The translations under genes were made by a program, and so were the position numbers. A stretch of DNA of 64,000 nt, taken from NCBI GenBank assembly GCA_965197585.1, contig OZ240215.1, positions 1,408,001-1,472,000 of the forward strand, given 5' to 3'. A model generated the notes under the pieces. It made no database searches, was not told the DNA's origin, and saw only the letters and a list, made by a program, of their open reading frames with translations. Positions within the stretch are counted from its first letter, which is position 1; each line of letters opens with the position of its first letter. This stretch comes from Dehalococcoidia bacterium (GTDB lineage Bacteria > Chloroflexota > Dehalococcoidia > Plut-88900). This document shows positions 19,963 to 44,750 of the stretch, piece by piece.

Positions 19963-20089
19963 CTGGACATATGTTATTTGACGCCCATTCCGGTGTCAAT
20001 TAAAAGACGGATATGTGACAGCGCGTGTCTCGGTAGCTGAGCGCCCCGCCAAAATGATCCCGTTCACATAGAGGGGTGACATATCCCCC

Positions 20090-20118
20090 TTGACTTTATA
20101 AGACAGGTGTTCTATTAT
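20090..20118 (+). promoter_or_regulatory. sigma70 promoter with LexA-like box (element copy 1)
   Basis: TTGACT-17-TATTAT; AGAC-AGGT-GTTC at 20101-20112 abuts the -10. Confidence 0.75.
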
Positions 20119-20124
20119 TGGGCC

Positions 20125-20875
20125 AGTCTAGACCCGACACTCACCTTAAGGAGGTAACCACAACCCAGGGAAGCCCACCCGGCCCCACCCGAGGACTCAA
20201 CGTCTAAGCCCATCCCAAAGGGCGGCCCACAAGCCGCCCCACGGCTCAAGCAAACGACGCCATCTCCTCATCCCCACCGGGTCCCGTGCACCCTTCCCTG
20301 ACCCCCAGGCGATGGAAAGACGCCCTGGTTCGCTATCGTTCCATGTGAACCCCCTCTAAGACGCTTCAGCCTCTTACAGGGAAAATCTCCCTTGGGAGTA
20401 ACCTGCTCTTTAGAGCGGAATTGCAGTCGGATAGGCCCGGCGCCGAGGTCCTCTCGGTGCCCCGACTGCTCAATAAAGCCGGGAGCCGGTGGTCCCTGCG
20501 CTCCGGGTCGCACCGGCAAACTTGGACACATTACACCTGCAAGAGGCTCACGCCGGACGCTGGACGAGCCTCCTTGCCGCCCTTATGCGGTGCAGCCAAC
20601 CCCCGGAGTCGGGCTCGGACCTGCTGGCCCTGTCGGTCCCTTCCCATGTCCAGCGTATACAGGGCCACAGGCCGCAGCAGCGGCAAAAGCGGGCCGGACG
20701 CCCTTGCCCCGGGGCGTCGGAGCACCCGAAGCACATGAACGGGGGCATCGTCCAGCAAGCGTCTTCCATCGTCAACCCAAAACCCAACAGACAGAACTGA
20801 AACCGAACCCCCACAATCGAAGATGCTGCAAGTCCGTCGTAGGCGGGGAACATCCTCCTCTGGAGGATCCGCCAC
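20125..20875 (+). ncRNA. Putative large structured ncRNA, family copy 1
   Basis: No credible ORF. 20148-20316 is homologous to 44176-44342. Long-range helix 20308-20323/20759-20773; many internal hairpins; AACTGAA at 20795; terminal hairpin 20842-20873. Confidence 0.6.
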
Positions 20876-21136
20876 TGGAGGACTGAAGAAAAGGCCAGTG
20901 TGTCACTAATCTGCCGAACGAGTACACTCAATTGAGCCGGAGTCCCATTTGTGATAACCTAGCGCCCGTCGGGGCTTGGAACCATTGGCCCGGGAAAGCG
21001 ACGTCAGACAAGCAATACTACGGTTATTTCCTCGCAATTCCTCCTCCAAGCGGACCTTACCCGACAGGCGAAAGCCAACTACAGCTGAATCCGGCGTTGC
21101 GCCAGGTTCAGACTCACATCATGATGGGGTAAGGCA

Positions 21137-22210
21137 TTGGCTAAGGCCGGAAGGCTAGCCGGTAGCGTCATAGGCGCAATAGTGGCCGCCCTGCTGGGGC
21201 TGGGCATCGGCCTTTCTCTTTCAGAAGCCGGCATATTCGAAGGCTGGAACACCTGGATAACCCTTGGCGCGAGCGTTCTGGGATTTGGGTTTGGACTAAT
21301 TGCCACCGCCCTTGTAATCATCCCTGGAGTGCAAAGGGCAGCCGGGAGCCTCTCGTCCCTTCGGCCGGAAGTTGCCTTCTCGGGGACCGTAGGTGCACTG
21401 GTCGGAGTAGTCCTCTCAGGCGTCTTGATCTACGCCTTTGCGGTGGCATCTCTTGCCTACCCCTGGAATGCCATAACCCCCGGCCTGCTGGTGCTCACAC
21501 TGGCTGGCCTCGGGGGCTGGGCCAGTGCATCCAGGGCCACACAGGTGATCTCCATGCTCGCCCGAGGCACTATCCCGGAAAGGGTCGCCGCCCCGGCATC
21601 CGTTAACGGGGCACAGAACGGGCGCTGCATCCTTGTCGACACGTCCGCGATCATCGATGGACGCATCGCCGAGATCACCCACACCGGTTTCGTAGACGGC
21701 GATCTTCTCATACCTCGATTCGTTCTGGAAGAACTCCAGTACGTCGCAGATTCCCCGGACAGCCTCAAGCGCAATAGAGGCCGCAGGGGTCTCGACGTCC
21801 TCAACCAACTCCAGAAAGACAGTAACGTGGAAGTCCAGATTACCGAGATCGACGTCCCCGACCAGGACGGCGTCGACAGCAAGCTCGTGAGCCTGGCAAA
21901 ACGCTCCGATTACTCACTCCTCACCACCGACTTCAACCTGAACAAGGTCGCCGAGCTTCAGGGCATCAGGGTTCTCAACATCAACGACCTTGCCAACTCC
22001 CTTAAACCAACGCTCATACCCGGTGAGGAGCTGAATCTCCACATCACCCAGGAGGGCAAGGAGGAGACCCAGGGAGTCGGGTTCCTGGACGACGGCACCA
22101 TGGTAGTCGTCGAGGGAGGTCACAAATACCTGAACTCCCAGCTGCCGGTGGTAATCACGCGGGTGCTGCAAACCTCGGCGGGCCGGATAATCTTCGCCCA
22201 CTTGAAATAG
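21137..22210 (+). CDS. PIN/TRAM domain membrane protein (YacL-like)
   Basis: LVDTSAIIDGRI, RGRRGLD, DFNLNKVA, GFLDDGTMVVVE and QTSAGRIIFA motifs; conserved position before ispDF-cysS. Confidence 0.92.
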   Translation: MAKAGRLAGSVIGAIVAALLGLGIGLSLSEAGIFEGWNTWITLGASVLGFGFGLIATALVIIPGVQRAAGSLSSLRPEVAFSGTVGALVGVVLSGVLIYAFAVASLAYPWNAITPGLLVLTLAGLGGWASASRATQVISMLARGTIPERVAAPASVNGAQNGRCILVDTSAIIDGRIAEITHTGFVDGDLLIPRFVLEELQYVADSPDSLKRNRGRRGLDVLNQLQKDSNVEVQITEIDVPDQDGVDSKLVSLAKRSDYSLLTTDFNLNKVAELQGIRVLNINDLANSLKPTLIPGEELNLHITQEGKEETQGVGFLDDGTMVVVEGGHKYLNSQLPVVITRVLQTSAGRIIFAHLK

Positions 22211-22215
22211 GGGCT

Positions 22216-22935
22216 GTGGTAGACCAGGAGCGGCCCCCGGCACCCGACCAGTCCGTCGGCGCTTTGGTCCTCGCCGCGGGGCGCAGCCAGCGAATGCAGG
22301 GTATCGACAAGACCTTCGCCTCCATCTTGGGTAAGCCACTCATCCTCCACACTATTTCCGTTTTTCTCGACTGCCCCGACATCCGGAGGGTTGTACTTGT
22401 CCTACCCGAGCCAAATATCGAAAAGGCCCGCGCTCTGCTTGAAGGGCTCAATAATTCCGGGAAGCTCACGCTGTGCGCCGGAGGTGAAAGGCGGCAGGAC
22501 TCCGCAACCAGGGGCCTCGACACCCTTGGACAGTGTGGCTGGGTCGCCGTTCACGATGGCGCACGCCCTTGCCTTTCCCCTGACATTCTCCAGCGTGCAC
22601 TTGCCGACGCCCGACTTCACGGCAGCGCCGTCGTCGCAGTTCCGGTGACCGACACCGTAAAACGCGCAGATTCCGAAGCCTTCATATCTGCTACCGTGAC
22701 CCGCGAAGGTCTCTGGGCCGTTCAGACTCCCCAGGTATTCCCCTTCGCCGTGTTGGAGCGCGCCTATCGAGAAGTTAGCGATAACGCTACCGACGACGCC
22801 TCAATGGTCGAGCGGCTGGGCGTTAAGATAAAGTTGACTCCCGGTTCTCCGACCAACTTGAAAGTAACCAACCCAGAAGACCTGAAACTCGCCGAGATGA
22901 TCCTCAAGTCCCGGGGCCAGGCCTCAGACAGGTAG
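22216..22935 (+). CDS. ispD: 2-C-methyl-D-erythritol 4-phosphate cytidylyltransferase
   Basis: LAAGRSQRM, GGERRQDS, VHDGARP, QTPQ and TDDAS motifs. Confidence 0.95.
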   Translation: MVDQERPPAPDQSVGALVLAAGRSQRMQGIDKTFASILGKPLILHTISVFLDCPDIRRVVLVLPEPNIEKARALLEGLNNSGKLTLCAGGERRQDSATRGLDTLGQCGWVAVHDGARPCLSPDILQRALADARLHGSAVVAVPVTDTVKRADSEAFISATVTREGLWAVQTPQVFPFAVLERAYREVSDNATDDASMVERLGVKIKLTPGSPTNLKVTNPEDLKLAEMILKSRGQASDR

Positions 22936-22949
22936 CCACTCAGAAAATT

Positions 22950-23438
22950 ATGCGCATAGGAATGGGAATCGACGTTCACGCCCTTGTCGAGGGCCGACCC
23001 CTCATATTGGGTGGCGTCACCGTACCGCACTCTCTCGGACTGTCCGGCCACAGCGACGGAGACGTTCTCACCCACGCCGTGGTCGACGCTCTCCTGGGGG
23101 CGGCGGGGATGGGGGATATCGGGGGCCGGTTCCCGTCCTCCGACGACACCTACAAGGACGCAGACAGCCTGACTTTCCTCTCCGCCATTGCCCCGGAACT
23201 CGCTAAGGCAGGTTGGAGCATCGAAAACGTGGATGCTACAATAATCGCCCAACGGCCCGCCCTTTCCCCATTCGTCAAGGAGATAGCAGCAAACATGGCT
23301 CGGGCCCTGGCCATAGACCCAAACCAGATCAACGTAAAGGCCACAACCAGCGACCGGCTGGGAATAGCCGGCAGAGAAGAAGGGATAGTAGCTTTCGCCG
23401 TGGCTCTCCTGGAACGGCAGAAGCCCCCCGACCGGTAA
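22950..23438 (+). CDS. ispF: 2-C-methyl-D-erythritol 2,4-cyclodiphosphate synthase
   Basis: RIGMGIDVH, GHSDGDV, GDIG and NVKATT motifs. Confidence 0.96.
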   Translation: MRIGMGIDVHALVEGRPLILGGVTVPHSLGLSGHSDGDVLTHAVVDALLGAAGMGDIGGRFPSSDDTYKDADSLTFLSAIAPELAKAGWSIENVDATIIAQRPALSPFVKEIAANMARALAIDPNQINVKATTSDRLGIAGREEGIVAFAVALLERQKPPDR

Positions 23439-23443
23439 CGCCA

Positions 23444-24922
23444 ATGCAAATCTACAACACCCTGACCCGTACTAAAGAGGAGTTCGTCCCCCTGGGCGAC
23501 CCCGTCAAGATGTACGTCTGTGGCATCACTCCTTACTCGGCCTCCCACGTAGGCCACGCCATGAGCTACATCACCTTCGACGTGGTCCGCCGCTACCTCG
23601 AGTGGCGCGGCTACAACGTGCTGCACATCCAGAACTTCACCGACGTCGACGACAAGATAATCGATCGTTCCGCATCCATCGGGTCTTCACCGAAAGACCT
23701 CGCCGAGGGCCTGATCCAGGACTATTTCAACGAGATGGACGCCCTTAACATCAAGCGCGCCCACATCTACCCCCGCGCAACCGAGGAGATCGCCAAAATC
23801 CTCGAGATGACCCAGGGCCTGGTAGAAAACGGGACCGCATACGCAGTCGACGGAGACGTCTACTACCGCATCAGCAGCTACGCCGACTACGGCAAACTCA
23901 GCCACCGCACCCTGGAAGGCATGATGTCCGGGGCACGGATCGAGGTCGACAACCGCAAAGAGCACCCGATGGACTTCGCCCTGTGGAAAGCCGCCAAACC
24001 CGGCGAACCTTCCTGGGAAAGTCCTTGGGGCCCCGGCCGACCCGGCTGGCACATGGAATGCAGCGCCATGTCCCTCAAATATCTCGGGGAGAGATTTGAC
24101 ATCCACGGCGGCGGCCTTGATCTGATATTCCCCCACCACGAAAACGAGATAGCACAGACCGAGGCTTTCACCGGCGTATCCCCTTCCGTACAGTATTGGC
24201 TCCACAATGGCCTGCTCCAACTTGATGATGAGAAGATGAGCAAGTCCCTCGGGAACCTGGTAACCGTCAATGAGGTCCTCGACGGCCATTCCGCCGACGC
24301 CCTACGCCTCTTCTTCCTAGGTTCCCACTACCGCAGCCCTCTCAGCTTCAGCGAACGCGGTCTCGAAGCGATGGAGCGGGGCGCAACCCGCCTTCGGAAC
24401 GCCGCACAGCAGGCGGACGCAGGACAAGGCAACGGGGTTCAAGTCTCCACCGACGGCTACCGTGAGCGATTCATCGAGGCCATGGACGACGATTTCGGCA
24501 CCTCCCAGGCCCTCGCCGCACTGTATGACCTAGCCCGCGACATTAATCGCGGCGCCGACTCAGGCTCGAATGTGGCAGACGCCGTAGTAATGCTTCGGGA
24601 GTTGGCCGGTGTCCTGGGCCTCACCCTCGAAGGCCAGACCGCCGGGTCCGGCGTCGATGACAAGAACTTAGCGGAACTGGTCGAGCAGGTGTCCTCCAAT
24701 TTGGAAGCTGCCGGTCAGATGGAGACTGCAGGACAGCTTTCAGCCAGCCTTTCTGGCGAGAGCTCGGGGCCCGACGATTACGTCAAAATCCTGATAAACG
24801 TGCGGGAAAAACTTCGCAAGAGTCGGGAGTTCGCACTAGCCGACCAGATCCGGGACTCCTTAACTGAAAGGGGCGTTGCCCTCAAGGACTCACCTACCGG
24901 CACCACCTGGGAGTTTGTCTAA
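23444..24922 (+). CDS. cysS: Cysteine--tRNA ligase
   Basis: MQIYNTLT, YVCGITPY, HVGH, GRPGWHMEC and KMSKS motifs. Confidence 0.97.
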   Translation: MQIYNTLTRTKEEFVPLGDPVKMYVCGITPYSASHVGHAMSYITFDVVRRYLEWRGYNVLHIQNFTDVDDKIIDRSASIGSSPKDLAEGLIQDYFNEMDALNIKRAHIYPRATEEIAKILEMTQGLVENGTAYAVDGDVYYRISSYADYGKLSHRTLEGMMSGARIEVDNRKEHPMDFALWKAAKPGEPSWESPWGPGRPGWHMECSAMSLKYLGERFDIHGGGLDLIFPHHENEIAQTEAFTGVSPSVQYWLHNGLLQLDDEKMSKSLGNLVTVNEVLDGHSADALRLFFLGSHYRSPLSFSERGLEAMERGATRLRNAAQQADAGQGNGVQVSTDGYRERFIEAMDDDFGTSQALAALYDLARDINRGADSGSNVADAVVMLRELAGVLGLTLEGQTAGSGVDDKNLAELVEQVSSNLEAAGQMETAGQLSASLSGESSGPDDYVKILINVREKLRKSREFALADQIRDSLTERGVALKDSPTGTTWEFV

Positions 24923-24972
24923 CCGGAGCCCTTGGCCCGCCAACCCGTCCCAAGGCCACTCTTTGAGATTCC

Positions 24973-25419: not shown

Positions 25420-25439
25420 CTTCTCAACTCCGAATAACA

Positions 25440-25470
25440 ATCGGGCGGCTGGCCAAGCCAACCGCCCGAT
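25440..25470. terminator. Hairpin between convergent genes
   Basis: ATCGGGCGGCTGGC-CAA-GCCAACCGCCCGAT. Confidence 0.6.
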
Positions 25471-25494
25471 GATTCTCTCTTTGGCCCGTTGCGG

Positions 25495-26604: not shown

Positions 26605-26629
26605 AGCGATTCCTCCGTGTGAACCCGGT

Positions 26630-27469: not shown

Positions 27470-27524
27470 TTGATTAGCGCAGTTACTGCTCGATGACTAG
27501 TTCGGGCCGAGGGACGCGGGCCTG

Positions 27525-27740: not shown

Positions 27741-27775
27741 GTAGATAACGCCTTACGATCTCGCCCATTCGCGGG

Positions 27776-32587: not shown

Positions 32588-33961
32588 CTACTGGATGTCG
32601 GCGAGGAATTCTTCCATTCTCTCAGCCAGGGAGTCCAGGTTGGTTCCCAGCCATACCTCGTCAACCACGACGGCCTTTTCAAGCGCTGACGGGGAGGTGG
32701 GGAGGTTGTCTATGGTGAGCTGATCAACGACGTCAGTGTTAACCAACGGCAGGGCCTGAAGGTTCAGGGGGCCGTAGGTGATGTACTTGATCATCTCTAC
32801 GTTGATGTGCGGCTCAGCAGTCCAGGAGATGAAGAGTTCGGCCAGGGTCTTGTTGGGCGAGCCCTTCGGGATGTAGAACACGTCGGTCTGGTTCAGGTGT
32901 CCGCACTCGAAGCAGTAGTGGAGGTTGTCGCCGCCTTCTTCCTGCTGGGCGTTCCAGATTCGACCGTTCCAGGCCGTGCACATGTCCGCTTGGTCGGTTA
33001 TCAAGGCTTGGGGGCAGTCCGTACCGCCGGTCCACCAGAACTGGATGTCATTCTTGATCTTTTCCAGCTCCTCAAAGGACTGGTCAACCTGCTCAGGGGT
33101 GAGCTTGGCTATGGCGTTCCGTCCTTCTACGGTTTCCAGGATCTCAGGGGTGCGCCTGAAGTGGGCGAAGAAGATGTTCTCGTTCACCCTGCGACCCATC
33201 CACCTGGTGCCGGGGAAGTTCTCGGTGTCCCAGAGGGCTTCCCAGTTGGTCGGGGCAACGCCGCCCCAAAGCTCGTCCACCTTGTTCTTCTGGTAGGCGA
33301 GACCCGTGGACCAGAGCACTCCGCCGCCGCCGCTCCAGGGAGTCACCGCAACTTGCGGGAAGAAGGGGAGGTAACGGTTGTGGATAGCCGGGGTCAGCTC
33401 TTCAAGGTCACCCGTCGGGCCAAGCTGGTAAACGGCCCTGGTACCAGAGTCGACTACGTCCCAGGTCACGTTTCCGGTTTCCACCATGGAACGGATCTTC
33501 GCGTACTCAACGGGGCTGTCTTCAATTAGATTGATGTTGAATTTATCCGCGAATGGTATGAAGTAGGCCTGCCTCTGGGCCGCCTGGTATGCGCCGCCCC
33601 AGGAAGTTACGTTGAGGCTCTGGCCGCTGTAGTTCGCCAGCTCCGCCTCAATTTCTTCGAAGGTACCCGGCTCATCTGCCGTCCATTCGGACATGGGACG
33701 GAGCGCAGCGGGTTCGGGTTCGGGTTCGGGTGCGGAGGTCGCCGTTACTACCGCGGCAGGCACTGCCGTGGCCGTGGCCTCGGCCTCCTCCTCCATCGCC
33801 GGCTCAGCCGTCGGCTCTTCCATCGCCGGCTCAGGTGTCGCCGTGGCGGCTTCGCCACAAGCGGCTACCACAAGCATGAGAGCCAGGACTAGTCCCAGCG
33901 CCCCGACGATGGCCCGGCGCCTGCCCAGGCTCATCTTGATTCGTTTCTTTCCTAATTGCAT
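32588..33961 (-). CDS. PotD/PotF-like extracellular solute-binding lipoprotein (paralog 1)
   Basis: Lipobox VAAC, acidic Pro/Ala linker, SWGGAYQAAQ, GNVTWDVVD, WNGR and YITYGP motifs. Confidence 0.85.
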   Translation of the reverse strand: MQLGKKRIKMSLGRRRAIVGALGLVLALMLVVAACGEAATATPEPAMEEPTAEPAMEEEAEATATAVPAAVVTATSAPEPEPEPAALRPMSEWTADEPGTFEEIEAELANYSGQSLNVTSWGGAYQAAQRQAYFIPFADKFNINLIEDSPVEYAKIRSMVETGNVTWDVVDSGTRAVYQLGPTGDLEELTPAIHNRYLPFFPQVAVTPWSGGGGVLWSTGLAYQKNKVDELWGGVAPTNWEALWDTENFPGTRWMGRRVNENIFFAHFRRTPEILETVEGRNAIAKLTPEQVDQSFEELEKIKNDIQFWWTGGTDCPQALITDQADMCTAWNGRIWNAQQEEGGDNLHYCFECGHLNQTDVFYIPKGSPNKTLAELFISWTAEPHINVEMIKYITYGPLNLQALPLVNTDVVDQLTIDNLPTSPSALEKAVVVDEVWLGTNLDSLAERMEEFLADIQ

Positions 33962-34351: not shown

Positions 34352-35662
34352 CTACTCCTGCAGTAGTTCCTGGAATTGTTCGATCAGCATTTGACCGTCA
34401 TCCAGGTTGGTGCCCAGCCAGTACTCATCCATGAGCACGACCTTCTCCAACGCGATGGGGGAAGTCGGCAGGGCATCCACAATCTCCGGAGCGAGCACCG
34501 AGGGCGCCAGGGCAACCGCGTCCGCGTGCAGAGGGCCGTAAGTGATGTAGTTGGAAACCTGGACGGCATTCTCCGGGAATCCCATCCACGCCAGGTACAG
34601 CTCCGATAGCTCTTTGTTGGGGGAGCCCTTAACTATCGAGTAGACGCCGGTCTGGTTGATGTGTCCACACTCGTAGCAGTAGTAGAGCGGAGAATTATCA
34701 TCCTCTTGCTGGGCGTTCCAGATCCTGCCGTTCCAGGCGGAGCATGTGTCGAAGTCACCTGCTATCAGTCCCTGGGGGCAATCGGTGCCGGTGTGCCACC
34801 AGTTGACCAGGTCGTCTTTTATCACCCTAAGGTGCTGGAGGGACTCTTCCACCTGTGCGTCGTCCAGGCTGCTTATGCTCTGTCTGCCCTCGACCGTTTC
34901 CAACAGCTCCGGATGGAGCGCCATCTGGGCAAAGATCACGTTCTCGTTGGGCCGGTCACCCAGGGACCTGTATCCGGGAACGCCTTCAACATCCCAGAAG
35001 TCGGCCCAACTCGTGGGAGCGCCGTCGTGATTGGGGTAGGCGTCGAGACTGTAGGCCAGACCGGTTGACCACATGATGCCGGCGCCGCCGCTCCAAGGCG
35101 TGACGGTAATGGCAGGATACCCGTCCAGGTAGCCGCTGTGGATCGCCGGATCCAGTTCTTCCAGGAAGCCGGGAATGCCGAGGGTGTAGACCCACCTGGT
35201 GCCGAAGTCGACGACGTCCCAGGTCACGTTGCCCGTTTCCGCCATCGCCTTTATCTTGGCCAGCTCGACGGGGCTGTCTTCAACTATCCCAATCCCGAAC
35301 TTATCCGCGAAGGGGATCATGTGGCCCTGTCTGACGGCCGCCTGCCAGCCGCCGCCCCAGCTGGTCTGGTTTAAGCTCTGGCCGCGGTATTTGGTCAGCT
35401 CCGCCTCGATCTCAGCCAAGGTGGCCGGATTCTCTTCCGTCCACTCCGACCGAGGCCTGACGTGGCTCACCATCGCATCCCCATCGTCCATGGCATCGCC
35501 ATCGTCCATGGTCGTGTCCGGTTCCTCGGGTTCGGGGGTCGCGGTCGCAGACTCGCCGCACGCTGCGCCTACTAGCAACGCCATCGCCAGGACGCTAAGT
35601 ACGGCAAGCAATGTCCACTTCTCGGTCAATCTTCGTCTCAAGGTCGTAGATATTTGTCTCAT
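34352..35662 (-). CDS. PotD/PotF-like extracellular solute-binding lipoprotein (paralog 2)
   Basis: Lipobox GAAC; collinear with 32588-33961 (SWGGGWQAAV, GNVTWDVVD, GTDCPQ, CYECGH); GGAGG SD. Confidence 0.85.
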   Translation of the reverse strand: MRQISTTLRRRLTEKWTLLAVLSVLAMALLVGAACGESATATPEPEEPDTTMDDGDAMDDGDAMVSHVRPRSEWTEENPATLAEIEAELTKYRGQSLNQTSWGGGWQAAVRQGHMIPFADKFGIGIVEDSPVELAKIKAMAETGNVTWDVVDFGTRWVYTLGIPGFLEELDPAIHSGYLDGYPAITVTPWSGGAGIMWSTGLAYSLDAYPNHDGAPTSWADFWDVEGVPGYRSLGDRPNENVIFAQMALHPELLETVEGRQSISSLDDAQVEESLQHLRVIKDDLVNWWHTGTDCPQGLIAGDFDTCSAWNGRIWNAQQEDDNSPLYYCYECGHINQTGVYSIVKGSPNKELSELYLAWMGFPENAVQVSNYITYGPLHADAVALAPSVLAPEIVDALPTSPIALEKVVLMDEYWLGTNLDDGQMLIEQFQELLQE

Positions 35663-37075: not shown

Positions 37076-37117
37076 TACCGCTCCCAAGAACCTCCCCCCA
37101 TCCCTTTCTCTCATGCC

Positions 37118-37590
37118 ATTCCGCGGGGTAGGGCCGCTCACCCTGAGCGAGCTGGAAGTGCGCCGTGCTGTAAGTCCGCCTTTGGCGGAGAGCATCGAAG
37201 GATCGAGCGGGGGTGGCCCACGTACAGCCAATCCGTCACGCCCGCCTTCATCCCAACCCAGCTTCTTTACACTGTCATTCCGAGGCTCCGCGAGGAATCT
37301 AGGACTTGCCCTCTCACACCCTTCCTCGCCTTTCCTCCCCCTCCCCACTTGGTAACGATATATCAATAAAACAGGGCGGGTGGGACTCAACTTATCCCGG
37401 CGGGGTCCGGAGGGGCGTCCCCCCCCCAACCCTCTCCCTCAACCCACCATTCCGAGGCCCCGCGAGGAATCTAGGACTTGCCCACTCACACATCTTACCC
37501 CCTCCCCAGCGTTGGGCCGCTCATGCTGAGGCTCTCGAAGTATGAGCGGGGGGCGGCCCGCGTTTGCCAATCCGTCGCGCCCGTCTTTCC
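37118..37590. repeat. Mosaic of REP-like palindromic repeats (cluster 1)
   Basis: GGGCCGCTCA..CTGAG..TCGAAG..GAGCGG at 37131-37210 and 37514-37549; CATTCCGAGGC.CCGCGAGGAATCTAGGACTTGCCC at about 37276 and 37448. Confidence 0.8.
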
Positions 37591-37651
37591 CCCGGACACC
37601 CCATTCCACCCCATCATCCTCTCACTCCCCGGTAGGTGTGGCATTACCCCC

Positions 37652-37681
37652 TTGACCCGGTATGAACACTTGTGCTATATT
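37652..37681 (+). promoter_or_regulatory. sigma70 promoter with LexA-like box (element copy 2)
   Basis: TTGACC-18-TATATT with extended -10 TG; GAAC-ACTT-GTGC at 37664-37675. Confidence 0.75.
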
Positions 37682-37687
37682 AGCCTC

Positions 37688-38650
37688 CAGGTCCCGACAC
37701 CCCACGTCGGCCCTAATCAAGGAAAGGTGGAACATCCGCCCAGCTGAAAGTCCGCCTTTGGCGGAGCGGAACCAAAGGAGTCCCATGAGTCGCACAAGCC
37801 TTCATAGGCCCCGTCGTTACCGAGCGGTATGTCACCGCCCGGCCCCCGGCACGCGCCTCCTTCCCAGCCCCTTTCCACCCACCATCCCCCAACTCAACTC
37901 CCACTACAAGCGCTGCCCAAAGGCCCTACGCCTACGCCTTCGCAGCGATCAATCACCGTCCTGTCCCCTGTATGGAAGGTTCCCGGACAAATCACGGCAC
38001 GCCCTTTCCAAGGACCACTGCCAAGTGTGCGCCCCATTCAAACGGCGCTTAGGTTTCGCCCCTTCAGGCGACGCCCTGGAGCACAGCGTCATGTCTCCAC
38101 CCTGGGCCATAGCGCCCTGTTCGGACTCCCACGGCCTAGACCTTGCCGGCGAGTCCGAACAGTCGGATGAGCGCCGACTCAAAACCAACGCACCTTTTAC
38201 GGATTCCACCGTCGTCACCATCGGAGATCTCCGGTCTACGAACGCCGGTCTCGGGTCCCCGCTCCCATCCCTTGGGATGGTCGAGCACTTCTGGTGGTCG
38301 GGACTGCCCCACAGCGAGACTTCCTCGCGTCTCTTCCACATCCCCTCAGAAGTTCGGGGCTGTCGCAAAGCCGGCTTCGATGTGGAATATCCGCTGTCGC
38401 GGACAACACCCATCGGTACAGGCGTCGCCGTCTTCCTGCGCAACCGTCCGGGACCTTCCATCCCCTCCCCCCACCGTTTACTCCCTCATTCCCGACTCCG
38501 ATCGGGAATCTATCCCCGGAAGCGGGGCCGGGGCGCTCCCTCCCCCCGTAGGGACGACCGGCTGGTCGCCCTGGGGTGGGGTCCGCCTCTTGTTCCCCCG
38601 CCACCCACGAAAGGAGCCCGCCTACCCGCCAACGCCCACAACTGAATGAC
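37688..38650 (+). ncRNA. Putative large structured ncRNA, family copy 2 (diverged)
   Basis: Long-range helix 37972-37988/38446-38461; shared CCCGACAC, ACTCAAC, CCCAAAGG and CCTG.CCCC leader motifs; AACTGAA at 38640; internal 12-bp helix 38117-38128/38151-38162. Confidence 0.55.
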
Positions 38651-38695
38651 CGCCGCCCCTGCATTCAGGCGTATGTACCGGTCAAAGGCCGGGGA

Positions 38696-39670: not shown

Positions 39671-39759
39671 TTCTTAGTCCTTTATGTAAATTGAGGCCGC
39701 TTTATGTAAAATGCTGGCCCTCGACCGCAGAGGTTTCGTGTGATGGCGAACTTAGTCCC

Positions 39760-40839
39760 TCAATTCGCGCTGAACCCGTACAGGGAAGCGGCGTTTGAGC
39801 TGACTATCTGCTGCTTATGTTCCTCCTGCACCCCCGCGAACTGCCTCTCTATCGCCTCCCGGGACTTGGGCCACGTGCCTTCGTGGTGAGGGTAGTCGTT
39901 GCCCCAGAGCAGGCACCCGGCGCCCGTGAACGAGATGTTAGCCAGCCCCACCGCATCCTCCCCGAAGGTCGCATATCCCTGCCTTCGGAAATAATCGCTG
40001 GGCTTCATGTCCAGCTTGGGCCTCACATACATGTGGTGCTTGTCCGCTCCTTCATCCATCGCGAGCATGTTCCAGGCAATCCACCCTATCCCCGACTCCA
40101 CGATCACGAACTTCATCTTCGGGTGATTCATCAGCACCCCCGAGGAGCACAGGTACGTCGTCACGTCTATCCCGTCGACCAGCGCGCCCATCACGTAGTT
40201 GATGATCGCCCCACCGGGCCCCCGCTCGATGCGCGGGTCACGGCCGCTGCTTATGTGAAAGTTCGCAGGCAGCCCCACTTCCTCTATTGCACTCCAGAGG
40301 GGCTCGTACTCGGGTCTGTTGTAGGGGAGGGGCTGCTTGCTGGGCAGGAACATCGACCCCATCCCCATCTTCGCCGTCCGGTAGACCTCTTCAACGGCGC
40401 CCTGGATATCGATCACCGGAATAAGAGCCGCCAATGCGAACCTCTCCCTGTGCGCACCGAAGAGCTCAGCAGCCCAGTCGTTGTAGGTTCGTGCCGCGGC
40501 CAGCTGAAAACCCGGGTCCGGAGACGCCGTCAATTCCAGCCCGTAGTTCGGGTAGATCACCTCTGCCGCTACGCCGTCCGTCTCCTGCGCCTCAAGTCGG
40601 ACGTTGACATTCCATCCACCCTTGACCGCTTCCTCTCGTAATAGGTCGTCCTTCCCCATCTCTTCCGTGCCCAGCTCGACCTTCCTCGGGCGCAGGCCGT
40701 CCCTGATTTCCAGCAGCCTCCCATCGACTACCTTCCTGTGGGGCGCCTTCTCCCGGTAGTCCGCAGGCATCCTTTCCTGCCACATGCTAAGCGGTTCGTC
40801 CACGTGAGAGTCCGCCGATATCAGCTTGTAGTCCATCAT
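39760..40839 (-). CDS. Amidohydrolase family 2 protein
   Basis: ISADSHV, ESGIGW and WGNDYPHHEGTWP motifs. Confidence 0.88.
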   Translation of the reverse strand: MMDYKLISADSHVDEPLSMWQERMPADYREKAPHRKVVDGRLLEIRDGLRPRKVELGTEEMGKDDLLREEAVKGGWNVNVRLEAQETDGVAAEVIYPNYGLELTASPDPGFQLAAARTYNDWAAELFGAHRERFALAALIPVIDIQGAVEEVYRTAKMGMGSMFLPSKQPLPYNRPEYEPLWSAIEEVGLPANFHISSGRDPRIERGPGGAIINYVMGALVDGIDVTTYLCSSGVLMNHPKMKFVIVESGIGWIAWNMLAMDEGADKHHMYVRPKLDMKPSDYFRRQGYATFGEDAVGLANISFTGAGCLLWGNDYPHHEGTWPKSREAIERQFAGVQEEHKQQIVSSNAASLYGFSAN

Positions 40840-40897
40840 GCCACTACTCCTTTCAGGTCGTTCTCACCCGATTATTGTCCACGACTAGGCGTCCAGT

Positions 40898-42106
40898 TTA
40901 GCCGAATGCCCCATCTTCCTTCAAACGGGCAAACTCCTCGGCGCTGAACCCCCCGACGCCCGTCATCACCTCTTCGTTATGCTCCCCCAGGGCCGGAGCC
41001 GCAGCCACCCTGCCCACGGGAGTCCCGGAAAACGCCAGCGGAACACCTGCCGCCGGTATCCTGCCCCGCGTAGGGTGGTCAATGTCGGTGACGTAGTTGT
41101 TGGCTCGAGCCTGGGGGTCGGCCGCCAGTTCCGCCATCGAGTTAACCGGCGAGTACGCCATCTCCAGCCCTGCCTCCTCAAGCGTACTCACCCACTCGGC
41201 CAGCGTCTTCTTGGCGAATATCTCATCGAGTTTGCCCATCAACCCCGCCCACCCCTCATCCTGCGGCGACGTCGCCGCCAGTTCCCCAGCCCCGATTGCG
41301 TTGCAAAACTCCTCCCACCATCGGTCGGGGTCCGGTTCGCAGAACATTAGCCACCGGCCGTCCGCACACTGGTACCAGTTGTATAGCAAACTGGTGGATT
41401 GAGACCTGTCATTCCTGGCATGCAACGGAGACCCTTCGCCCGGCGGCAAGTTCAAATCGGGGAACCTATCCGACCACAAGGCATAGTTAACCGCACCATG
41501 CTGGAAGTGCATCGCGCTCCCCAGCAGCGACCCCTGCACCATCTGCCCGTGCCCCGTCCGCTCCCGATTCACCAGCGCCGCAAGGATTCCATATGTCATT
41601 ACCGTGCCCGTGTTCTGGTCGAAAAGGCCGCCCTCCAAAAGAAGCGGCTCGGCCTCTAATCCTCCACTTATCATTGCGGTGAAACCGCTCCGCGCCTGGA
41701 CCAGCGCCTCGAAGGCCCTCCGGTCCTTGTCCTTGCCCAGGGGCCCCCATGCTCCAACGTGCCCGTAAACGAGCCTGCTGTTTATCCCCGAGAGAGTCTC
41801 GTAGTCAGCACCCAGGCGCTCCAGCAAGGCCGTATGGAAGTTCGATACGAAGACGTCCGCCCTGCCGACCAGCCGATACAGCGCTTCCTTGCCCGATTCC
41901 TTCTTCAAGTCCAGCGTAACGCTCTTCTTGTTCCGGTTCACGGCGTCGAACCAGAAGGTGCCCTTGGACCGGGTCGGGTCTCCGCCGTCAGGGCGCTCTA
42001 TCTTGAGCACCTCGGCCCCGAGGTCGCCCAATATGTACCCGATGGGAGGCCCAACGTGTATAACCGCCATCTCCACAACTCTGATTCCGTCTAATGGTCC
42101 CGGCAT
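40898..42106 (-). CDS. CaiB/BaiF family III CoA-transferase
   Basis: PLDGIRVVE, DLGAEVLKIE, NRNKKSVTLDLK and APALGEHN motifs. Confidence 0.9.
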   Translation of the reverse strand: MPGPLDGIRVVEMAVIHVGPPIGYILGDLGAEVLKIERPDGGDPTRSKGTFWFDAVNRNKKSVTLDLKKESGKEALYRLVGRADVFVSNFHTALLERLGADYETLSGINSRLVYGHVGAWGPLGKDKDRRAFEALVQARSGFTAMISGGLEAEPLLLEGGLFDQNTGTVMTYGILAALVNRERTGHGQMVQGSLLGSAMHFQHGAVNYALWSDRFPDLNLPPGEGSPLHARNDRSQSTSLLYNWYQCADGRWLMFCEPDPDRWWEEFCNAIGAGELAATSPQDEGWAGLMGKLDEIFAKKTLAEWVSTLEEAGLEMAYSPVNSMAELAADPQARANNYVTDIDHPTRGRIPAAGVPLAFSGTPVGRVAAAPALGEHNEEVMTGVGGFSAEEFARLKEDGAFG

Positions 42107-42182
42107 AGCTCCTCCTCAGTCGAGCGTTTGGGTTTCCTTTAATATCGGGTGGGACATTATGTTAAGACTTTCCCTTCCCCGA

Positions 42183-43586
42183 CTAGTTCTTCGCAATCTC
42201 CGGCACCCGACCCGTCCAGGGCCGAGCCTGCTCCAAAGCCGCCGAGGCCCGCAGCACAGTCATCTCATCACCCCACCTCCCCACCACCTGCAGTCCTATC
42301 GGCAGCCCATCCGACGAAAACCCGCAGGGCACGCTGGCCGCGGGATTTCCGGCTATGTTGAAACTTGCGGTGAAAGGCGCTGCTCCCCACAGCTTGCTGA
42401 CCTCCTGCCCGGCAATCTCCCGGGGCCGAGCCCCGATGGGATACGCAGGCACGGCAGTCGTGGGAGTCAATAGCAGGTCGTATTCCTCAAAGAAATCTTC
42501 CATCCTGGCCCGGAACTTCCACAGTTTCGACATGGCCCTGGCGTAGTCCGTCCCCATTGCCCGTTGCCCGGCCTCCAGGGTCGACTTCACGTAGTTCATC
42601 AACTGGTCTCCGTGGCTCTCCAGCAGAGACCCGTTGTTTGCGTACTCTTCCACTATGACTATGGGGCCAAATATACCGAACGGCGCCCCCGACTCCGGCG
42701 TCGCATCCTCCAGCGAGCATCCCATCCCCTCGAAAAGCTCCGCCGTTTCCCGCGTCTTGATCAACACCTCCTCGTCCACCACCCCATACCCCAAGTCCGA
42801 GCTCCACGCCACTTTCAAACCCTTCACCTCACCGTCCAGAGCTTCCAGAAAGTCTGGCGCTTCCGAGCGTATGGCGAGGCTGTCCCGGGAATCGTGGCCC
42901 GATATCTGGTTCAGCATCAGGGCCGCATCCCTCACGCTCCGGCTCATCGGCCCACTGTCCGAAAACAGCGCCCAACCTCCGTCCTTTGACGGGACCCTGC
43001 CGTGCGTCGGCTTGATCCCGTACACCCCACAGAATGCGGCTGGCACCCTGATCGAGCCCCCGCCGTCGCTCCCCGTGGCCAGAGGGCAGATATACGCCGC
43101 CAAGGCTGCTCCTGACCCACCACTCGAACCACCCGGCGTCCGGCCCGTATCCCACGGGTTCCGGCAGTCGTCTCCCAGCCGGTTCTCGGTGCTCGTAGAC
43201 TGCCCGAATTCCGGGGTGTTCGTCTTACCCAGAACTATCGCCCCGGCCTTCCTCAGCCTCTCCACAATTATGGAGTCTTCATCAGGCACGTTGTCCTTAA
43301 ATGCCAGCGAACCGAATGTAGTCCTGATTCCCTTCGTTGCCTCCAGGTCCTTTACGGCGACGGGAATCCCGTGAAGGGACGGCATATCCGGCCCCGCGCT
43401 CTTCTCCGCCTCCCTCGCCGACTCCATAGCCTCGTCACCGCACACCGTGAGAAAGGCGTTGAGAGTCGGGTTGAAGGCCTCGATCCTCCGCAGGCAGGCC
43501 TCGATGAGCTCCACCGGCGACACCTGACGGGACGATATCAGGCCGGCCAGTTCTGTCGTGTCTTTTCTGATTAGATCATTGGTCAC
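42183..43586 (-). CDS. Amidase signature family enzyme
   Basis: VAVKD, GKTNTPEF, GGSSGGS and GSDGGGSIRVPA motifs. Confidence 0.92.
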   Translation of the reverse strand: MTNDLIRKDTTELAGLISSRQVSPVELIEACLRRIEAFNPTLNAFLTVCGDEAMESAREAEKSAGPDMPSLHGIPVAVKDLEATKGIRTTFGSLAFKDNVPDEDSIIVERLRKAGAIVLGKTNTPEFGQSTSTENRLGDDCRNPWDTGRTPGGSSGGSGAALAAYICPLATGSDGGGSIRVPAAFCGVYGIKPTHGRVPSKDGGWALFSDSGPMSRSVRDAALMLNQISGHDSRDSLAIRSEAPDFLEALDGEVKGLKVAWSSDLGYGVVDEEVLIKTRETAELFEGMGCSLEDATPESGAPFGIFGPIVIVEEYANNGSLLESHGDQLMNYVKSTLEAGQRAMGTDYARAMSKLWKFRARMEDFFEEYDLLLTPTTAVPAYPIGARPREIAGQEVSKLWGAAPFTASFNIAGNPAASVPCGFSSDGLPIGLQVVGRWGDEMTVLRASAALEQARPWTGRVPEIAKN

Positions 43587-43730
43587 AGATCGGGTTCCTC
43601 CGGTGCAAGGTTCGGCCGAGCGAGTTCATTCGATAAACTGGACACGGAAAATGAGCGAGTGCGGTTCGGCCCGATTATAGGAATCGCCCGACAACACGGT
43701 CAAGGTTGACGCCCCTCCCCCTTCTCACCC

Positions 43731-44090
43731 CACCATTCCGATGCCCCGCGAGGAACCTAGGGCATAAGCCCGCCACTCACCTATTTAATCCCCAACCCCA
43801 CCCCCGCCCCCGAGCCGGAATCCAGGGAGGGGCCGCTCACACTGAGCCTGTTGTAAGTCCGCTGAGGCGGACCGAAGGGTCGAGCGGGGGCCACCCCACA
43901 CTGCCATCCCCCATCCGTCTTTCCTACGGAGGCAGGTCGCAGATGCGCCAAGGCGTGAACCCATCCCCCCTGAAGGCGCACCCCCGCCGAGCCGGGACTC
44001 CCTTCCCCAGGGGCTGTGGGGCCGCTCACCCTGAGGCACTCGAAGGGTCGAGCGGGAGGCCCCACACTTGCCGACCCGTCGCGCCTTCCC
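43731..44090. repeat. Mosaic of REP-like palindromic repeats (cluster 2)
   Basis: CATTCCGATGCCCCGCGAGGAACCTAG at 43734; GGGCCGCTCAC.CTGAG...CGAAGGGTCGAGCGG at about 43830-43886 and 44019-44055. Confidence 0.8.
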
Positions 44091-44111
44091 CCCAAAAGTG
44101 ACACGAACCCC

Positions 44112-44141
44112 TTGACCTAATCAGGACATCTGTACTATTAT
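44112..44141 (+). promoter_or_regulatory. sigma70 promoter with LexA-like box (element copy 3)
   Basis: TTGACC-18-TATTAT; GGAC-ATCT-GTAC at 44124-44135. Confidence 0.75.
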
Positions 44142-44147
44142 CCCCCT

Positions 44148-44750
44148 TGAATGGCCAATCACACACCCTAAACCCAAGGAGGAACACACAACCCAGGGGG
44201 AACACCAGCCCCGGCCCCGAGGACTCAACGCCTAAGCCCATCCCAACGGCCCTCGCGCAGGCCCGCGGCACAAGCGAAAGTCGCCATCTCCTCATCCCAC
44301 CGGGTCCCGTGTCCTCTTCCCTGACCCCCATCAGGCGATGGATGGTCCACAATTTTAAGCGGCACGCTCCCCTCAAAGGAGCCCTGCCCAAATGAGCCCC
44401 GCTCACGCCGGGCCAAACACCTCGGGCCTTTACGCCCTTGGAAACATCTCCCCCGTCGTTCCCTTCGGAGACCCCCATACAACCAGCGACGGCAGCGAGA
44501 AAACGTGCTCCCCACCCCTCCGAGTGGGTCAGCCAAAACTGGTGGTAGAGATGCCCTCAAGCGAGAACCCCTCGCTTGTCTACCACGTGATAACAGAAGC
44601 ACGGGGCTGAACCAGGCTGGCCTCCCGCCCCCTGAATCCGAGTCCCGGACCTTCCATCGCCTGCCCTCCGTCACCAAGTAACAAAGTGAAAACGAAATCC
44701 CAACTGAATACACAATCCCTGAAGGGAAGACCCGCCGGTCTCCCTGGGAT
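44148..44750 (+). ncRNA. Putative large structured ncRNA, family copy 3
   Basis: Leader homologous to copy 1; 16/17-bp long-range helix 44332-44348/44647-44663; AACTGAA at 44702; terminal hairpin 44715-44750. Confidence 0.6.

Follow-up and report, generated by a model that had tools for sequence, protein, structure and literature searches.

A probable genus-specific family of mobile elements with terminase-gene cargo that settle upstream of host promoters in Dehalococcoidia

MITEs and other non-autonomous derivatives of insertion sequences may carry promoters, the Correia elements of Neisseria being an example, and MITEs usually measure under about 600 bp. In plants, Pack-MULEs and Pack-MITEs are transposons with captured gene fragments. 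A 5-bp duplication together with TG...CA ends is a hallmark of rve transposases, and the RNase-H-like fold of the terminase nuclease recurs in the DDE transposases. Putative mobile promoters, as presented in "Promoter reuse in prokaryotes" (PMC3575422), are near-identical promoter regions standing before unrelated genes in one genome.

Here we describe three loci (copies 1, 2 and 3) in a 64,000-nucleotide stretch, the window of this analysis, from the genome of an uncultured, sponge-associated Dehalococcoidia genus. Very probably they belong to a genus-specific family of insertion elements, either without an ORF or with a decayed one, that carry a terminase fragment as cargo, possess their own promoter and settle upstream of host promoters. 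A first-pass annotation had counted a three-copy family, but a whole-genome nhmmer search (3.43 Mb) returned 71 copies, 57 with a full-length C-rich leader and 14 reduced to the promoter. The copies are many, dispersed and intergenic, with lengths of 0.6-1.0 kb for the family at large and 700-1100 bp in the size comparison with MITEs. Every one of the 8 other genomes of the genus has the family, and it was found in none of the 22 from relatives outside the genus. The anatomy comprises, in order, TG...CA ends with 27-bp imperfect inverted repeats, a promoter with its operator, a C-rich leader, a core of 300-530 nt bounded by a 13-18-bp inverted repeat, and a CA-rich tail.

These elements resemble MITEs in being dispersed and intergenic, in holding no working transposase gene, and in showing terminal repeats (class I), a 5-bp target duplication and presence or absence at orthologous sites between strains. 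They differ in their larger size, in having an inward-facing promoter, a LexA-box-like operator and a captured gene fragment, in the phase-locking of their right end 5 bp upstream of -35 hexamers, and in that no cognate autonomous IS with the same termini was found by pattern search in nine genomes of the genus, nor with looser motifs in this one. With Pack-MULEs they share a non-autonomous, amplified and decaying body whose interior combines a host-gene fragment with regulatory sequence; unlike Pack-MULEs, they are bacterial, and their cargo comes from one particular gene, a terminase-like one. Compared with the putative mobile promoters (PMC3575422), the vehicle, the ends, the duplication and the target site are all defined here, and what the promoter drives, before the host promoter is reached, is 0.6-0.9 kb of DNA that is non-coding or decayed.

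Copy 1 displays the complete class I arrangement:

20050..20054, no strand: left copy of the target duplication, CAAAA (empty-site and two-ended comparison)
20055..20926, + strand: copy 1, complete class I element of 872 bp with TG...CA termini (boundaries from the analysis of two-ended elements)
20055..20081, + strand: left terminal inverted repeat TGATCCCGTTCACATAGAGGGGTGACA (conserved 5' terminus of 16 copies)
20090..20118, + strand: promoter TTGACT-17-TATTAT, with operator AGACAGGTGTTC at 20101-20112
20125..20307, + strand: C-rich, G-poor leader with AAGGAGG box (putative transcription start; RNA contigs on the leader)
20308..20323, + strand: closing helix, 5' strand, pairing with 20759-20773 (read from sequence)
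20324..20758, + strand: core, probably a strongly decayed terminase nuclease-domain relic (weak matches)
20774..20899, + strand: CA-rich tail bearing the CAGAACTGAAACC motif plus a small hairpin module
20900..20926, + strand: right terminal inverted repeat GTGTCACTAATCTGCCGAACGAGTACA (genus-wide matches)
20932..20960, + strand: host promoter targeted by copy 1, TTGAGC-17-TAACCT (already in empty sites)

The comparison with orthologous empty sites proposed at first pass proved informative, copy 1 being present in genome G005 and exactly absent from G002 and G003 (empty site ...cccccaaaat|tgagcc...); it is also lacking in G001, G004, G006, G007 and G008. Its right duplication, CTCAA (20927-20931), matches the left CAAAA at only 3 of 5 positions. 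Across the 24 elements with both ends, however, 11 match at 5/5 positions and 8 at 4/5, as against 0.4% and 2.8% of random pairings, and the elements are thus insertions that generate 5-bp target duplications. The termini of class I copies, copy 1 included, are TG...CA with imperfect 27-bp inverted repeats, TGATCCCGTTCACATAGAGGGGTGACA agreeing with the reverse complement of the right end, TGTACTCGTTCGGTAGATTAGTGACA, at about 19 of 27 positions by our own count. Roughly 16 of the 71 copies in the genome carry the left repeat (up to 6 mismatches to the 27-mer), the right repeat is matched 22 times in this genome and 56 times in seven others of the genus, and a T precedes GATCC in 23 of the 24 two-ended elements. 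No terminal repeats or duplications are demonstrable for copy 2 or for the class II copies, copy 3 among them, so that the mobility of copies 2 and 3 is read from presence and absence alone.

An unusual target site is used: 5 bp downstream of the right end comes a host TTGAC -35 hexamer, and the element has the same orientation as the host promoter. In the set of 38 distinct right ends, T stands at +6 in 34, T at +7 in 32, G at +8 in 32, A at +9 in 25 and C at +10 in 25. Both a -35 and a -10 hexamer follow with at least 4 of 6 positions matching in 21 of the 38, whereas 17 other offsets gave 0/38 and random genome positions 0.2%; the other 17 right ends failed this two-hexamer test. Besides the copy 1 site, two more empty sites, L031 (TTTCG|TTGACA) and L093, already hold the host promoter. 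Copy 2 is an exception to the rule, sitting between two convergent genes rather than at a promoter. A literature search returned no description of such -35-phase-locked targeting, which, if mechanistic, would be a mode of target choice new to bacterial DDE elements and would offer a natural route to stacking a stress-responsive promoter on many host genes.

An IS481-like IS resident in the genome (1056 bp, about 20 copies at 99-100% identity) matches NCBIfam transpos_IS481 at E 3e-54, below the curated cut-off. Like the elements, it has TG...CA termini, 26-27-bp terminal repeats ending in TGACA and a 5-bp target duplication, and its terminal repeat shares 17 of 26 positions with their right repeat (own count). 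Unlike them, it encodes its own transposase, and it inserts into a REP-like hairpin (GTC|ATTCC|GAGG...) and not at -35 hexamers. A DDE (rve) transposase of IS481 type may act in trans to transpose the elements, and this enzyme might recognise the -35 hexamer. As a tentative proposal, the family could be one of promoter-homing transposons. Their transposase would read the -35 hexamer, perhaps via the contacts it makes where its own terminal repeats end in TGACA, and would set an SOS-type promoter and a leader that loads Rho or antiterminates 5 bp in front of dozens of host promoters. If that is true, a sizeable part of the transcriptome would be rewired in this genus.

Sigma-70-like promoters stand at all three loci where the first-pass annotation had placed them (20090-20118, 37652-37681 and 44112-44141), and the LexA-like box it had noticed is real: a 12-bp palindrome-like operator abuts or overlaps the -10 box, and 51 of the 71 family promoters fall within 2 mismatches of GAAC-N4-GTTC, compared with 0.4% of random 12-mers. 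None of the 71 holds a perfect GAAC-N4-GTTC operator; the lexA gene's own upstream region bears GAACGCCCGTTC. Judging from this likeness, the element promoter may be LexA-repressed. The two intact ORF1-ORF2-terminase-like operons of the genome have the same promoter type, with a LexA-box-like operator, alignable to the element promoters. The promoters of elements and operons are homologous, so that the cargo has the look of a piece of such an operon, either captured or left by internal deletion. Beyond the promoter, the leader has no match in the intact operons.

The parent gene of the cargo is predicted to encode an ATPase domain and an RNase-H-like nuclease domain, as in the large terminase. 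Pfam Terminase_6C is found in 11 of 20 homologs of the protein, a PHROG terminase matches it at 8e-6, and its predicted fold matches the T4 gp17, HK97, Sf6 and D6E terminases with E down to 3e-14. The two-domain fold and Terminase_6C are thus common to the parent and to phage large terminase (TerL: T4 gp17, HK97, Sf6 gp2, D6E), and it is from the nuclease domain that the element cores derive; in contrast to TerL, the elements hold aa 193-375 or less, in decayed form, and the parent lies in a three-gene operon; in the loci read, neither capsid nor portal genes stand close by. The cores had been described as having no clear similarity to one another, whereas all three go back to one and the same segment of this gene, with traces that range from strong to faint. 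Very probably the cores are diverged fragments of the part of a terminase-large-subunit-like gene that encodes the RNase-H-like nuclease domain. The strongest case is copy 2, which retains a long open frame:

37098..38652, + strand: composite insertion of small REP-like modules and copy 2 (presence/absence comparison)
37652..37681, + strand: promoter TTGACC-18-TATATT, with operator GAACACTTGTGC at 37664-37675 (aligns with the intact-operon promoters)
37785..38645, + strand: open frame of 286 aa behind AAGGAG-N5-ATG, with its stop within the AACTGAA motif
37972..37988, + strand: closing helix, 5' strand, pairing with 38447-38462 (read from sequence)

This composite is absent from G003, G001, G004 and G008, where its flanks lie 0-73 nt apart. 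Against the intact terminase-like protein, the 286-aa frame gives a BLASTP E of 1e-36 with 39% identity over 213 aa, a result that contradicts the earlier statement that the loci hold no credible protein; the match covers aa 194-375 only, and the frame does not comprise both the ATPase and the nuclease domain. The roughly 14 copies of this type cover aa 193-374. Copy 2 had also been said to keep some of the leader motifs, yet only model positions 1-98, the promoter part, match it.

Copies 1 and 3 retain only faint terminase traces. In copy 1, one frame of the core matches aa 338-419 of the terminase-like protein weakly (BLASTP E 0.004), as does the DNA profile of its core cluster the terminase-like gene (E 0.012, likewise weak); the core has five paralogs at 78-84% identity. 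Copy 3 belongs to class II:

44085..44762, + strand: copy 3, class II element without canonical terminal repeats (presence/absence comparison)
44112..44141, + strand: promoter TTGACC-18-TATTAT, with operator GGACATCTGTAC at 44124-44135
44332..44348, + strand: closing helix, 5' strand, pairing with 44647-44663 (seen in the minimum-free-energy fold)
44349..44646, + strand: core, probably a decayed terminase nuclease-domain relic (frame match and cluster matches)
44765..44794, + strand: host promoter directly 3' of copy 3, TTGTAA-18-TATAAT

Its frame at 44359-44607 matches terminase-like aa 286-337 (E 4e-4), and 8 of the 23 members of its core cluster match the protein, the best at E 1e-25. The best values for the leader-type core clusters are 1e-25, 1e-19, 4e-14 and 1e-5 against the protein, and their DNA profiles match the gene at 8e-12, 4.5e-5 and 0.012. 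A consistent reading frame was sought among the leader-type copies and none was found, nor did Pfam match any of the 5 longest frames. Copy 3 has an ortholog in G001 at 82% identity and is absent from G007 and G008; in G005 its leader is 86% identical and its tail 95% identical, with the core replaced. Ectopic gene conversion swaps segments among copies: copy 1 shares 91.4% identity with its G005 ortholog, in patches, beside intergenic flanks at 98.9-100%.

The C-rich leader noted earlier in copies 1 and 3 is the one that recurs in full length in 57 copies; its GC skew is -0.30 to -0.39, and, being G-poor, it may load Rho and limit read-through into the host gene. Over these copies conservation reaches about 99% in the promoter hexamers and the leader blocks while the cores decay, a difference for which simple decay does not account. 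Also upheld are the long-range helix, present at all three loci and occurring in at least two mutually compensated versions, GACGC/GCGTC and GGTCC/GGACC, with GACAC/GTGTC in addition, and a common tail motif, CACAAYYGAA. In copy 2 the helix strands correspond to codons of the terminase-like gene (SNDGRFLDN and RLGSSIVKP). In each of the five core clusters the alifold consensus has this helix outermost, and it measures about 8 bp in the intact gene and 13-18 bp in the elements; this sharpening, together with compensatory changes in one cluster (17 compensated base pairs versus 2-5 in shifted controls), hints at structural selection. Conserved leader and sharpened helix leave room for a possible RNA-level role.

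From such features the first-pass annotation had proposed an undescribed family of large functional ncRNAs, and a related reading, which we consider unlikely, makes the elements vehicles for a functional RNA, either a selected large ncRNA or a cis-acting leader, with transposition only the means of spreading; its possible roles would be to load Rho, to antiterminate or to permit SOS-timed read-through into host genes. Besides the conservation and the 17-pair cluster, it can draw on compensated variants of the leader hairpin and closing helix (6 pairs, versus 1-4 in shifted controls), on folding z-scores of -4.4 and -4.2, on the presence of Rho in the genome alongside the leader skew, on the lack of intrinsic terminators within the elements, and on sponge-metatranscriptome RNA contigs. 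The transcript check suggested earlier is thereby answered as to coverage of the elements; the contigs are assembled ones in which strand and ends are not shown and DNA carry-over is possible. However, in 4 of 5 clusters the antisense strand folds equally well or better and covaries equally, the leader conservation may stem from gene conversion, and the orthologous copy 1 of G005 diverges, patchily, faster than its neutral flanks (91.4% identity, as against 98.9-100% for the flanking intergenic DNA). No Rfam family matches, as already stated at first pass and confirmed by covariance-model scans: at the gathering threshold the whole window yields SRP RNA and a tRNA only, and E-value scans of the three loci yield nothing below 0.078.

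Against the ncRNA family it counts that its own proponents had named decayed protein-coding sequence as refuting it: the cores are decayed terminase nuclease-domain coding sequence, and the units are insertions with inverted repeats and target duplications. Of the proposed non-autonomous mobile RNA cassettes, mobility and non-autonomy stand, whereas the evidence favours transposition as DNA. A new family of large functional RNAs is disfavoured relative to mobile, protein-less DNA elements. It is tempting to read an RNA into such a combination of promoter, conserved scaffold, covarying closing helix and "variable core", all of which a transposon with a decaying gene fragment can produce. Retron-like templates for a trans-encoded reverse transcriptase, another early suggestion, are unlikely because RVT_1 has 0 matches in the single closed 3.43 Mb contig (marker completeness 91.9%).

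That elements of the copy 2 type code for a functioning protein, namely a truncated terminase nuclease-domain paralog retained in many copies, seems to us quite improbable. Open frames of 255-471 aa without internal stops do occur at 12 of about 14 loci, with in-frame internal duplications and, in 7 copies, a conserved ribosome-binding site and ATG. Simulated neutral copies remain open only 25-47% of the time each, the product of seven such probabilities being 9e-4, and 477 database proteins match the copy 2 frame, a count biased because the database holds only frames that remained open. The substitutions tell against it, with flat differences over codon positions (613/635/657) and an omega-like ratio of 0.71, as do the lack of the ATPase domain and of the nuclease domain's C-terminal third, where the HDD motif region lies, the R/P/S-rich, junk-like 33 N-terminal residues and the absence of a Pfam match. 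The copy 2 frame is a truncated, near-neutrally evolving terminase fragment and not a transposase.

It is highly improbable that the family consists of deletion derivatives of an autonomous ORF1-ORF2-terminase operon whose terminase nuclease/ATPase cuts and joins the DNA, as a terminase-driven transposon or satellite, for although the promoter type is common to operons and elements, full-length copies number 2-4 per genome in the genus versus usually one elsewhere in the class, and the RNase-H-like fold is shared with DDE transposases, the intact operons lack element-type terminal repeats, the 5-bp duplications and TG...CA ends are typical of rve transposases, an IS481-like IS with related ends is active here, and the distribution of the gene suggests a resident one. 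The conserved orphan terminase-like operon, or its gene, is itself worth flagging: it occurs in 80 of 121 sampled Dehalococcoidia genomes, mostly as a single match.

The three intergenic loci are most probably copies of a genus-specific insertion element, non-autonomous and carrying a promoter, with a decaying fragment of a terminase gene as its interior. The observations of the first-pass annotation largely held, while its reading of them as a new family of large non-coding RNAs found no support. The element, which comprises a left repeat, a promoter with a LexA-box-like operator, a C-rich leader, a helix-closed core, a CA-rich tail and a right repeat, is unusual in its phase-locked site upstream of -35 hexamers, its LexA-like operator, its strongly conserved leader and its sharpened closing helix; the abstract openings and listings consulted hold no account of such elements.

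Copies of the element in the window
20055-20926, plus strand: copy 1
37098-38652, plus strand: copy 2 (composite)
44085-44762, plus strand: copy 3

The family had been described as having three copies, a number that proved far too low: a leader profile built from copy 1 recovers 57 full-length copies at E 5e-47 or better in the 3.43 Mb genome, and 14 further loci, copy 2 among them, match its promoter part alone. A tail profile likewise finds 57 places, 47 of which lie 299-529 nt downstream of a same-strand leader. By BLAST, the cores fall into clusters of 21, 12, 10, 8, 6, 6, 2 and 2 members plus four singletons, the largest linking copies 2 and 3, with the core of copy 1 in a cluster of six. 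The leader is present in all eight other genomes of the genus (46-91 first-look candidates per genome) and was found in none of three other genera of the family and none of 19 genomes from other families of the class. When one genome per species was scanned for the exact pattern, at least 93 stretches came back, and among the 80 matches listed all are titled "MAG: Dehalococcoidia bacterium".

Comparison of orthologous sites, which the first-pass annotation had proposed, provided evidence of insertion. With G000 denoting the window's own genome and G001-G008 the other eight of the genus, a 3.3 kb query that includes copy 1 aligns over its full length in G005, while G002 and G003 carry exact empty sites in which the flanks abut (cccccaaaat followed directly by tgagcc) and precisely the 872-bp element is missing; copy 1 is also absent from G001, G004, G006, G007 and G008. 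The 1.55 kb composite at 37098-38652 that contains copy 2 is absent from G003, G001, G004 and G008. Copy 3 is collinear in G001 (82% identity), absent from G007 and G008, and a mosaic in G005, where the leader is 86% identical, the core different and the tail 95% identical. Reverse cases, such as loci L031 and L093, are empty here and occupied in other genomes.

The left end of class I elements, TGATCCCGTTCACATAGAGGGGTGACA, occurs in about 16 copies in this genome, copy 1 included, and also in G001, G002, G003 and G005; for the right end, GTGTCACTAAYCTNYCGAACGAGTACA, there are 22 occurrences here and 56 across seven further genomes of the genus. With both ends read inward, they make up an imperfect inverted repeat whose termini are TG...CA, agreeing at about 19 of 27 positions as counted by eye. 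The five bases outside each end were compared in 24 elements with both ends (17 in this genome and 7 at other loci), copy 1 being one of those that match at three positions.

Agreement of the flanking 5-mers in 24 elements
5 of 5 bases: 11 elements; 0.4% of random pairings
4 of 5 bases: 8 elements; 2.8% of random pairings
3 of 5 bases: 2 elements; random pairings not compared
2 of 5 bases: 2 elements; random pairings not compared
1 of 5 bases: 1 element; random pairings not compared

Class II copies, to which copy 3 belongs, start with CCCCAAAAGTGACAC without the left repeat and follow one of about five other small repeat modules. The intergenic regions upstream of copies 2 and 3 (37100-37640 and 43600-44090) are mosaics of several small repeat modules, for example GGGCCGCTCACCCTGAGC...GTCGAAGGGTCGAGCGG, TATCAATAAAACAGGGCGGGTGGG and, as a nested mini-hairpin, GTAAGTCCGCCTTTGGCGGA, and these modules recur upstream of many family members.

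The elements lie upstream of host -35 hexamers at a distance of 5 bp, co-oriented with the host promoter. Across 38 distinct right ends, the bases following the duplication are T, T, G, A and C in 34, 32, 32, 25 and 25 cases, and 21 pass a two-hexamer test (-35 and -10 each matching at four or more of six positions, spaced 16-19 nt); at any of 17 other offsets none of the 38 passes, and of 20,000 random positions in the genome 0.2% do. Since the -35 hexamer is already there in the empty sites, it is part of the target and not of the element. This phasing may stem from recognition by the transposase or from the survival of harmless insertions, and its exactness argues for a mechanistic component. 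Against a strict targeting rule, however, 17 of the 38 right ends fail the test, copy 2 lies between two convergent genes, and the class II copies, copy 3 included, lack the left repeat. Among extra copies of the left terminus, the one at G000:659305 belongs to an element split by an unrelated insertion sequence (IS) encoding a 438-aa protein of the integrase-core (rve) type, which lies between the left repeat and the -35 hexamer (G000:C1:659305-661380). Another, at G000:3404962, is a solo 33-nt left end directly adjoining the -35 hexamer of the groES-groEL promoter (G000:C1:3404962-3405100), after which follows the CIRCE-like inverted repeat TTAGCACTC-N9-GAGTGCTAA. The remaining extra copies are chance matches.

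Pairing of the ends across the nine genomes yielded no gene-bearing element with family ends, giving units of 700-1100 bp only and two units broken by unrelated insertions; an apparent autonomous copy at G000:3313360-3316207 is a chance motif within a cadherin-like repeat gene. The genome holds 29 matches to rve-type integrase cores, about 20 of them from one 1056-bp IS at 99-100% identity, whose 320-aa product most resembles IS481 transposases (E 3e-54, below the NCBIfam cut-off). Like the elements, this IS has TG...CA ends and duplicates 5 bp (ATTCC in its case); its terminal repeat and the right repeat of the elements agree at 17 of 26 positions as counted by eye and both end in TGACA, whereas the target of the IS is strictly the REP-like hairpin GTCATTCCGAGGCTCCGCGAGGAAT. 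From these resemblances in sequence we infer that the elements would be mobilised in trans by a transposase of the IS481-like type. One copy of the IS lies at G000:C1:1679032-1680087, with about 20 others elsewhere and none in the window, while copies of its target hairpin occur in the window at 37276-37319, 37448-37491 and 43734-43777.

The variable interior, which had been taken for the core of an RNA devoid of any credible protein, is instead a decayed gene fragment. Sense frames of 270-341 aa are open in 9 of 10 copy 2-type copies, where shuffled sequences average about 150, and the frame of copy 2, with an ATG at 37785 behind AAGGAG, matches 477 database proteins and about 14 loci in this genome. 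Two of these loci, L148 and L149, which are just 51-52% identical and whose open frames span 504 and 540 aa, carry a normal-looking 461-aa gene as part of a three-gene operon.

Terminase-like operons
G000:C1:1116800-1120300 (L148): 132-aa ORF, 69-aa ORF, 461-aa terminase-like gene
G000:C1:2871300-2874800 (L149): 132-aa ORF, 69-aa ORF, 461-aa terminase-like gene

The 461-aa gene is identified as a large terminase because of weak PHROG matches to large terminases (8e-6), the Pfam domain Terminase_6C in 11 of 20 aligned homologs (best 4e-8), and a predicted structure (mean pLDDT 71) resembling the T4 gp17, HK97, Sf6 and D6E large terminases, with Foldseek E values of 3e-14 to 1e-11 and both domains covered. 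Its own product has no Pfam match, and a sequence-profile search against solved structures returned none. The 132-aa ORF has a Pro/Arg-rich N-terminus, the 69-aa ORF a hydrophobic stretch, and the operon promoter is of the same type as those of the elements; no capsid or portal gene was found in the 3.5 kb read around either operon. The protein database contains more than 3,346 homologs of about 460 aa; of 121 Dehalococcoidia genomes sampled, 80 have them, mostly with one match per genome, while this genus has 2-4 full-length matches per genome and many partial ones. The operon may represent a domesticated packaging motor, a gene-transfer agent or a satellite.

The copy 2 frame aligns to residues 194-375 of the terminase-like protein (39% identity over 213 aa, E 1e-36). 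In the core cluster of copy 3, 8 of 23 members match the protein (best E 1e-25), and other leader-type clusters reach 1e-19 (4 of 4 members), 4e-14 (2 of 2) and 1e-5 (2 of 2), individual leader-type cores having 1-3 stops each. DNA profiles of these clusters match the gene at E 8e-12, 4.5e-5 and 0.012, the last being the cluster of copy 1, and those of two clusters have no gene match below 0.05. Taken singly, copy 3 matches residues 286-337 in one frame (E 4e-4) and nothing in another, and copy 1 matches residues 338-419 in one frame (E 0.004). As for the leader, a coding role is rejected, the frames of copies 1, 3 and others being mutually shifted; the ORF1 and ORF2 proteins of the terminase operon had no tblastn match at E 0.1 in 122 elements, and the leader profile matches the operons in the promoter alone.

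Copy 2 may still encode a working truncated protein, in that simulated neutral copies remain open in just 25-47% of trials each (product 9e-4). However, when seven copies are compared at 203 gap-free codons, differences are spread evenly across codon positions (613/635/657), and the share of single changes that are synonymous is 0.344 where 0.273 would be expected, giving an omega-like ratio of 0.71; the ATPase domain and the final third of the nuclease domain are missing from the frame. It reads as a near-neutral relic, under at most weak selection against stops.

Identity between copy 1 and its G005 ortholog is only 91.4%, with 87 positions in gaps, compared with 98.9% and 100% in the intergenic flanks and 96.6-97.5% at third codon positions in the neighbouring genes. 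The differences are patchy and the patches match paralog variants, which indicates that the copies exchange sequence by ectopic gene conversion, a process that accounts for the core swap of copy 3 in G005 as well. Arguments from conservation, including that of the leader, are thereby weakened.

The long-range helix reported around the core is real in every one of the three copies.

Closing helices
20308-20323 with 20759-20773, plus strand: copy 1
37972-37988 with 38447-38462, plus strand: copy 2
44332-44348 with 44647-44663, plus strand: copy 3 (in the minimum-free-energy fold)

Its strands correspond to terminase-like gene codons for SNDGRFLDN and RLGSSIVKP, and it measures about 8 bp in that gene versus 13-18 bp in the elements. 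Folding z-scores are -4.4 and -4.2, and all five cluster consensus folds have the helix as their outermost pair set. One cluster has 17 compensated pairs versus 2-5 in shifted controls, the other four hardly exceeding controls; antisense alifold energies and covariation resemble those of the sense strand, so the strand of the structure is not callable. Were the helix the terminal repeat of a nested MITE, solo cores might be expected, but BLAST matches of the three cores all lie at or beside family-promoter loci, with no solo core among them; an 11-mer scan aimed at solo strands of the helix returned too much noise to be informative.

The sigma-70-type promoters stand where the first-pass annotation had placed them, and no intrinsic-terminator-like site was found on the sense strand inside the three loci.

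Promoters
20090-20118, plus strand: copy 1, TTGACT-17-TATTAT
37652-37681, plus strand: copy 2, TTGACC-18-TATATT
44112-44141, plus strand: copy 3, TTGACC-18-TATTAT

The operator adjoining the -10 box has the consensus G-n-A-C-A-n-n-T-G-T-n-C. Compared with GAAC-N4-GTTC, 20 of the 71 operators have one mismatch, 31 have two and none is perfect, while 19 have 4-7, some probably mis-registered by the search pattern. The region upstream of lexA contains GAACGCCCGTTC, and that of recA a half-match overlapping its own -10 box. LexA control of the element promoters is plausible. The leader (GC skew -0.30 to -0.39) and tail (-0.33) are C-rich and G-poor, the genome has a Rho gene, and the leader may load Rho on an untranslated transcript.

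Metatranscriptome contigs from four sponge runs of one study, in which neighbouring-gene contigs at 0-3 mismatches confirm the presence of the organism, cover copies 1 and 2 at the leader and the cores. Their depths add up to 5-9 across copy 1 and to 2.5-14.5 across the latter half of copy 2, values in which leader depth pools many paralogs, neither strand nor ends are given and DNA carry-over may be included; parts of the window without contig cover were not counted as evidence. Contig joints from 38360 to 38201 (going back 160), 38519 to 37514 and 37580 to 38594, at 88% likeness in a repeat-rich region, are read not as circles or excision but as paralogs with internal duplications or REP-like repeats. 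The first of these (38201-38360) occurs in two runs, and in-frame tandem duplications of 25-32 codons in copy 2 paralogs probably explain it.

A retron, group II intron or DGR template is rejected, the co-occurring reverse transcriptase that had been suggested (RVT_1) not being found in the genome, and a known RNA family is ruled out by Rfam at gathering and E-value thresholds: the whole window at gathering threshold gave an SRP RNA and a tRNA-Arg only, and permissive scans of the three loci nothing below E 0.078. The SRP RNA is of the bacterial large type (19695-19961, minus strand, 187 bits), by far the most abundant RNA in the contig runs, and its promoter (TTGACA-17-TAACAT at 19999-19971) stands back to back with copy 1. 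Two paralogous genes at 32588-33961 and 34352-35662, both on the minus strand, share about 71% DNA identity over several stretches, the former having the highest contig depth among protein genes of the stretch examined for RNA contigs.
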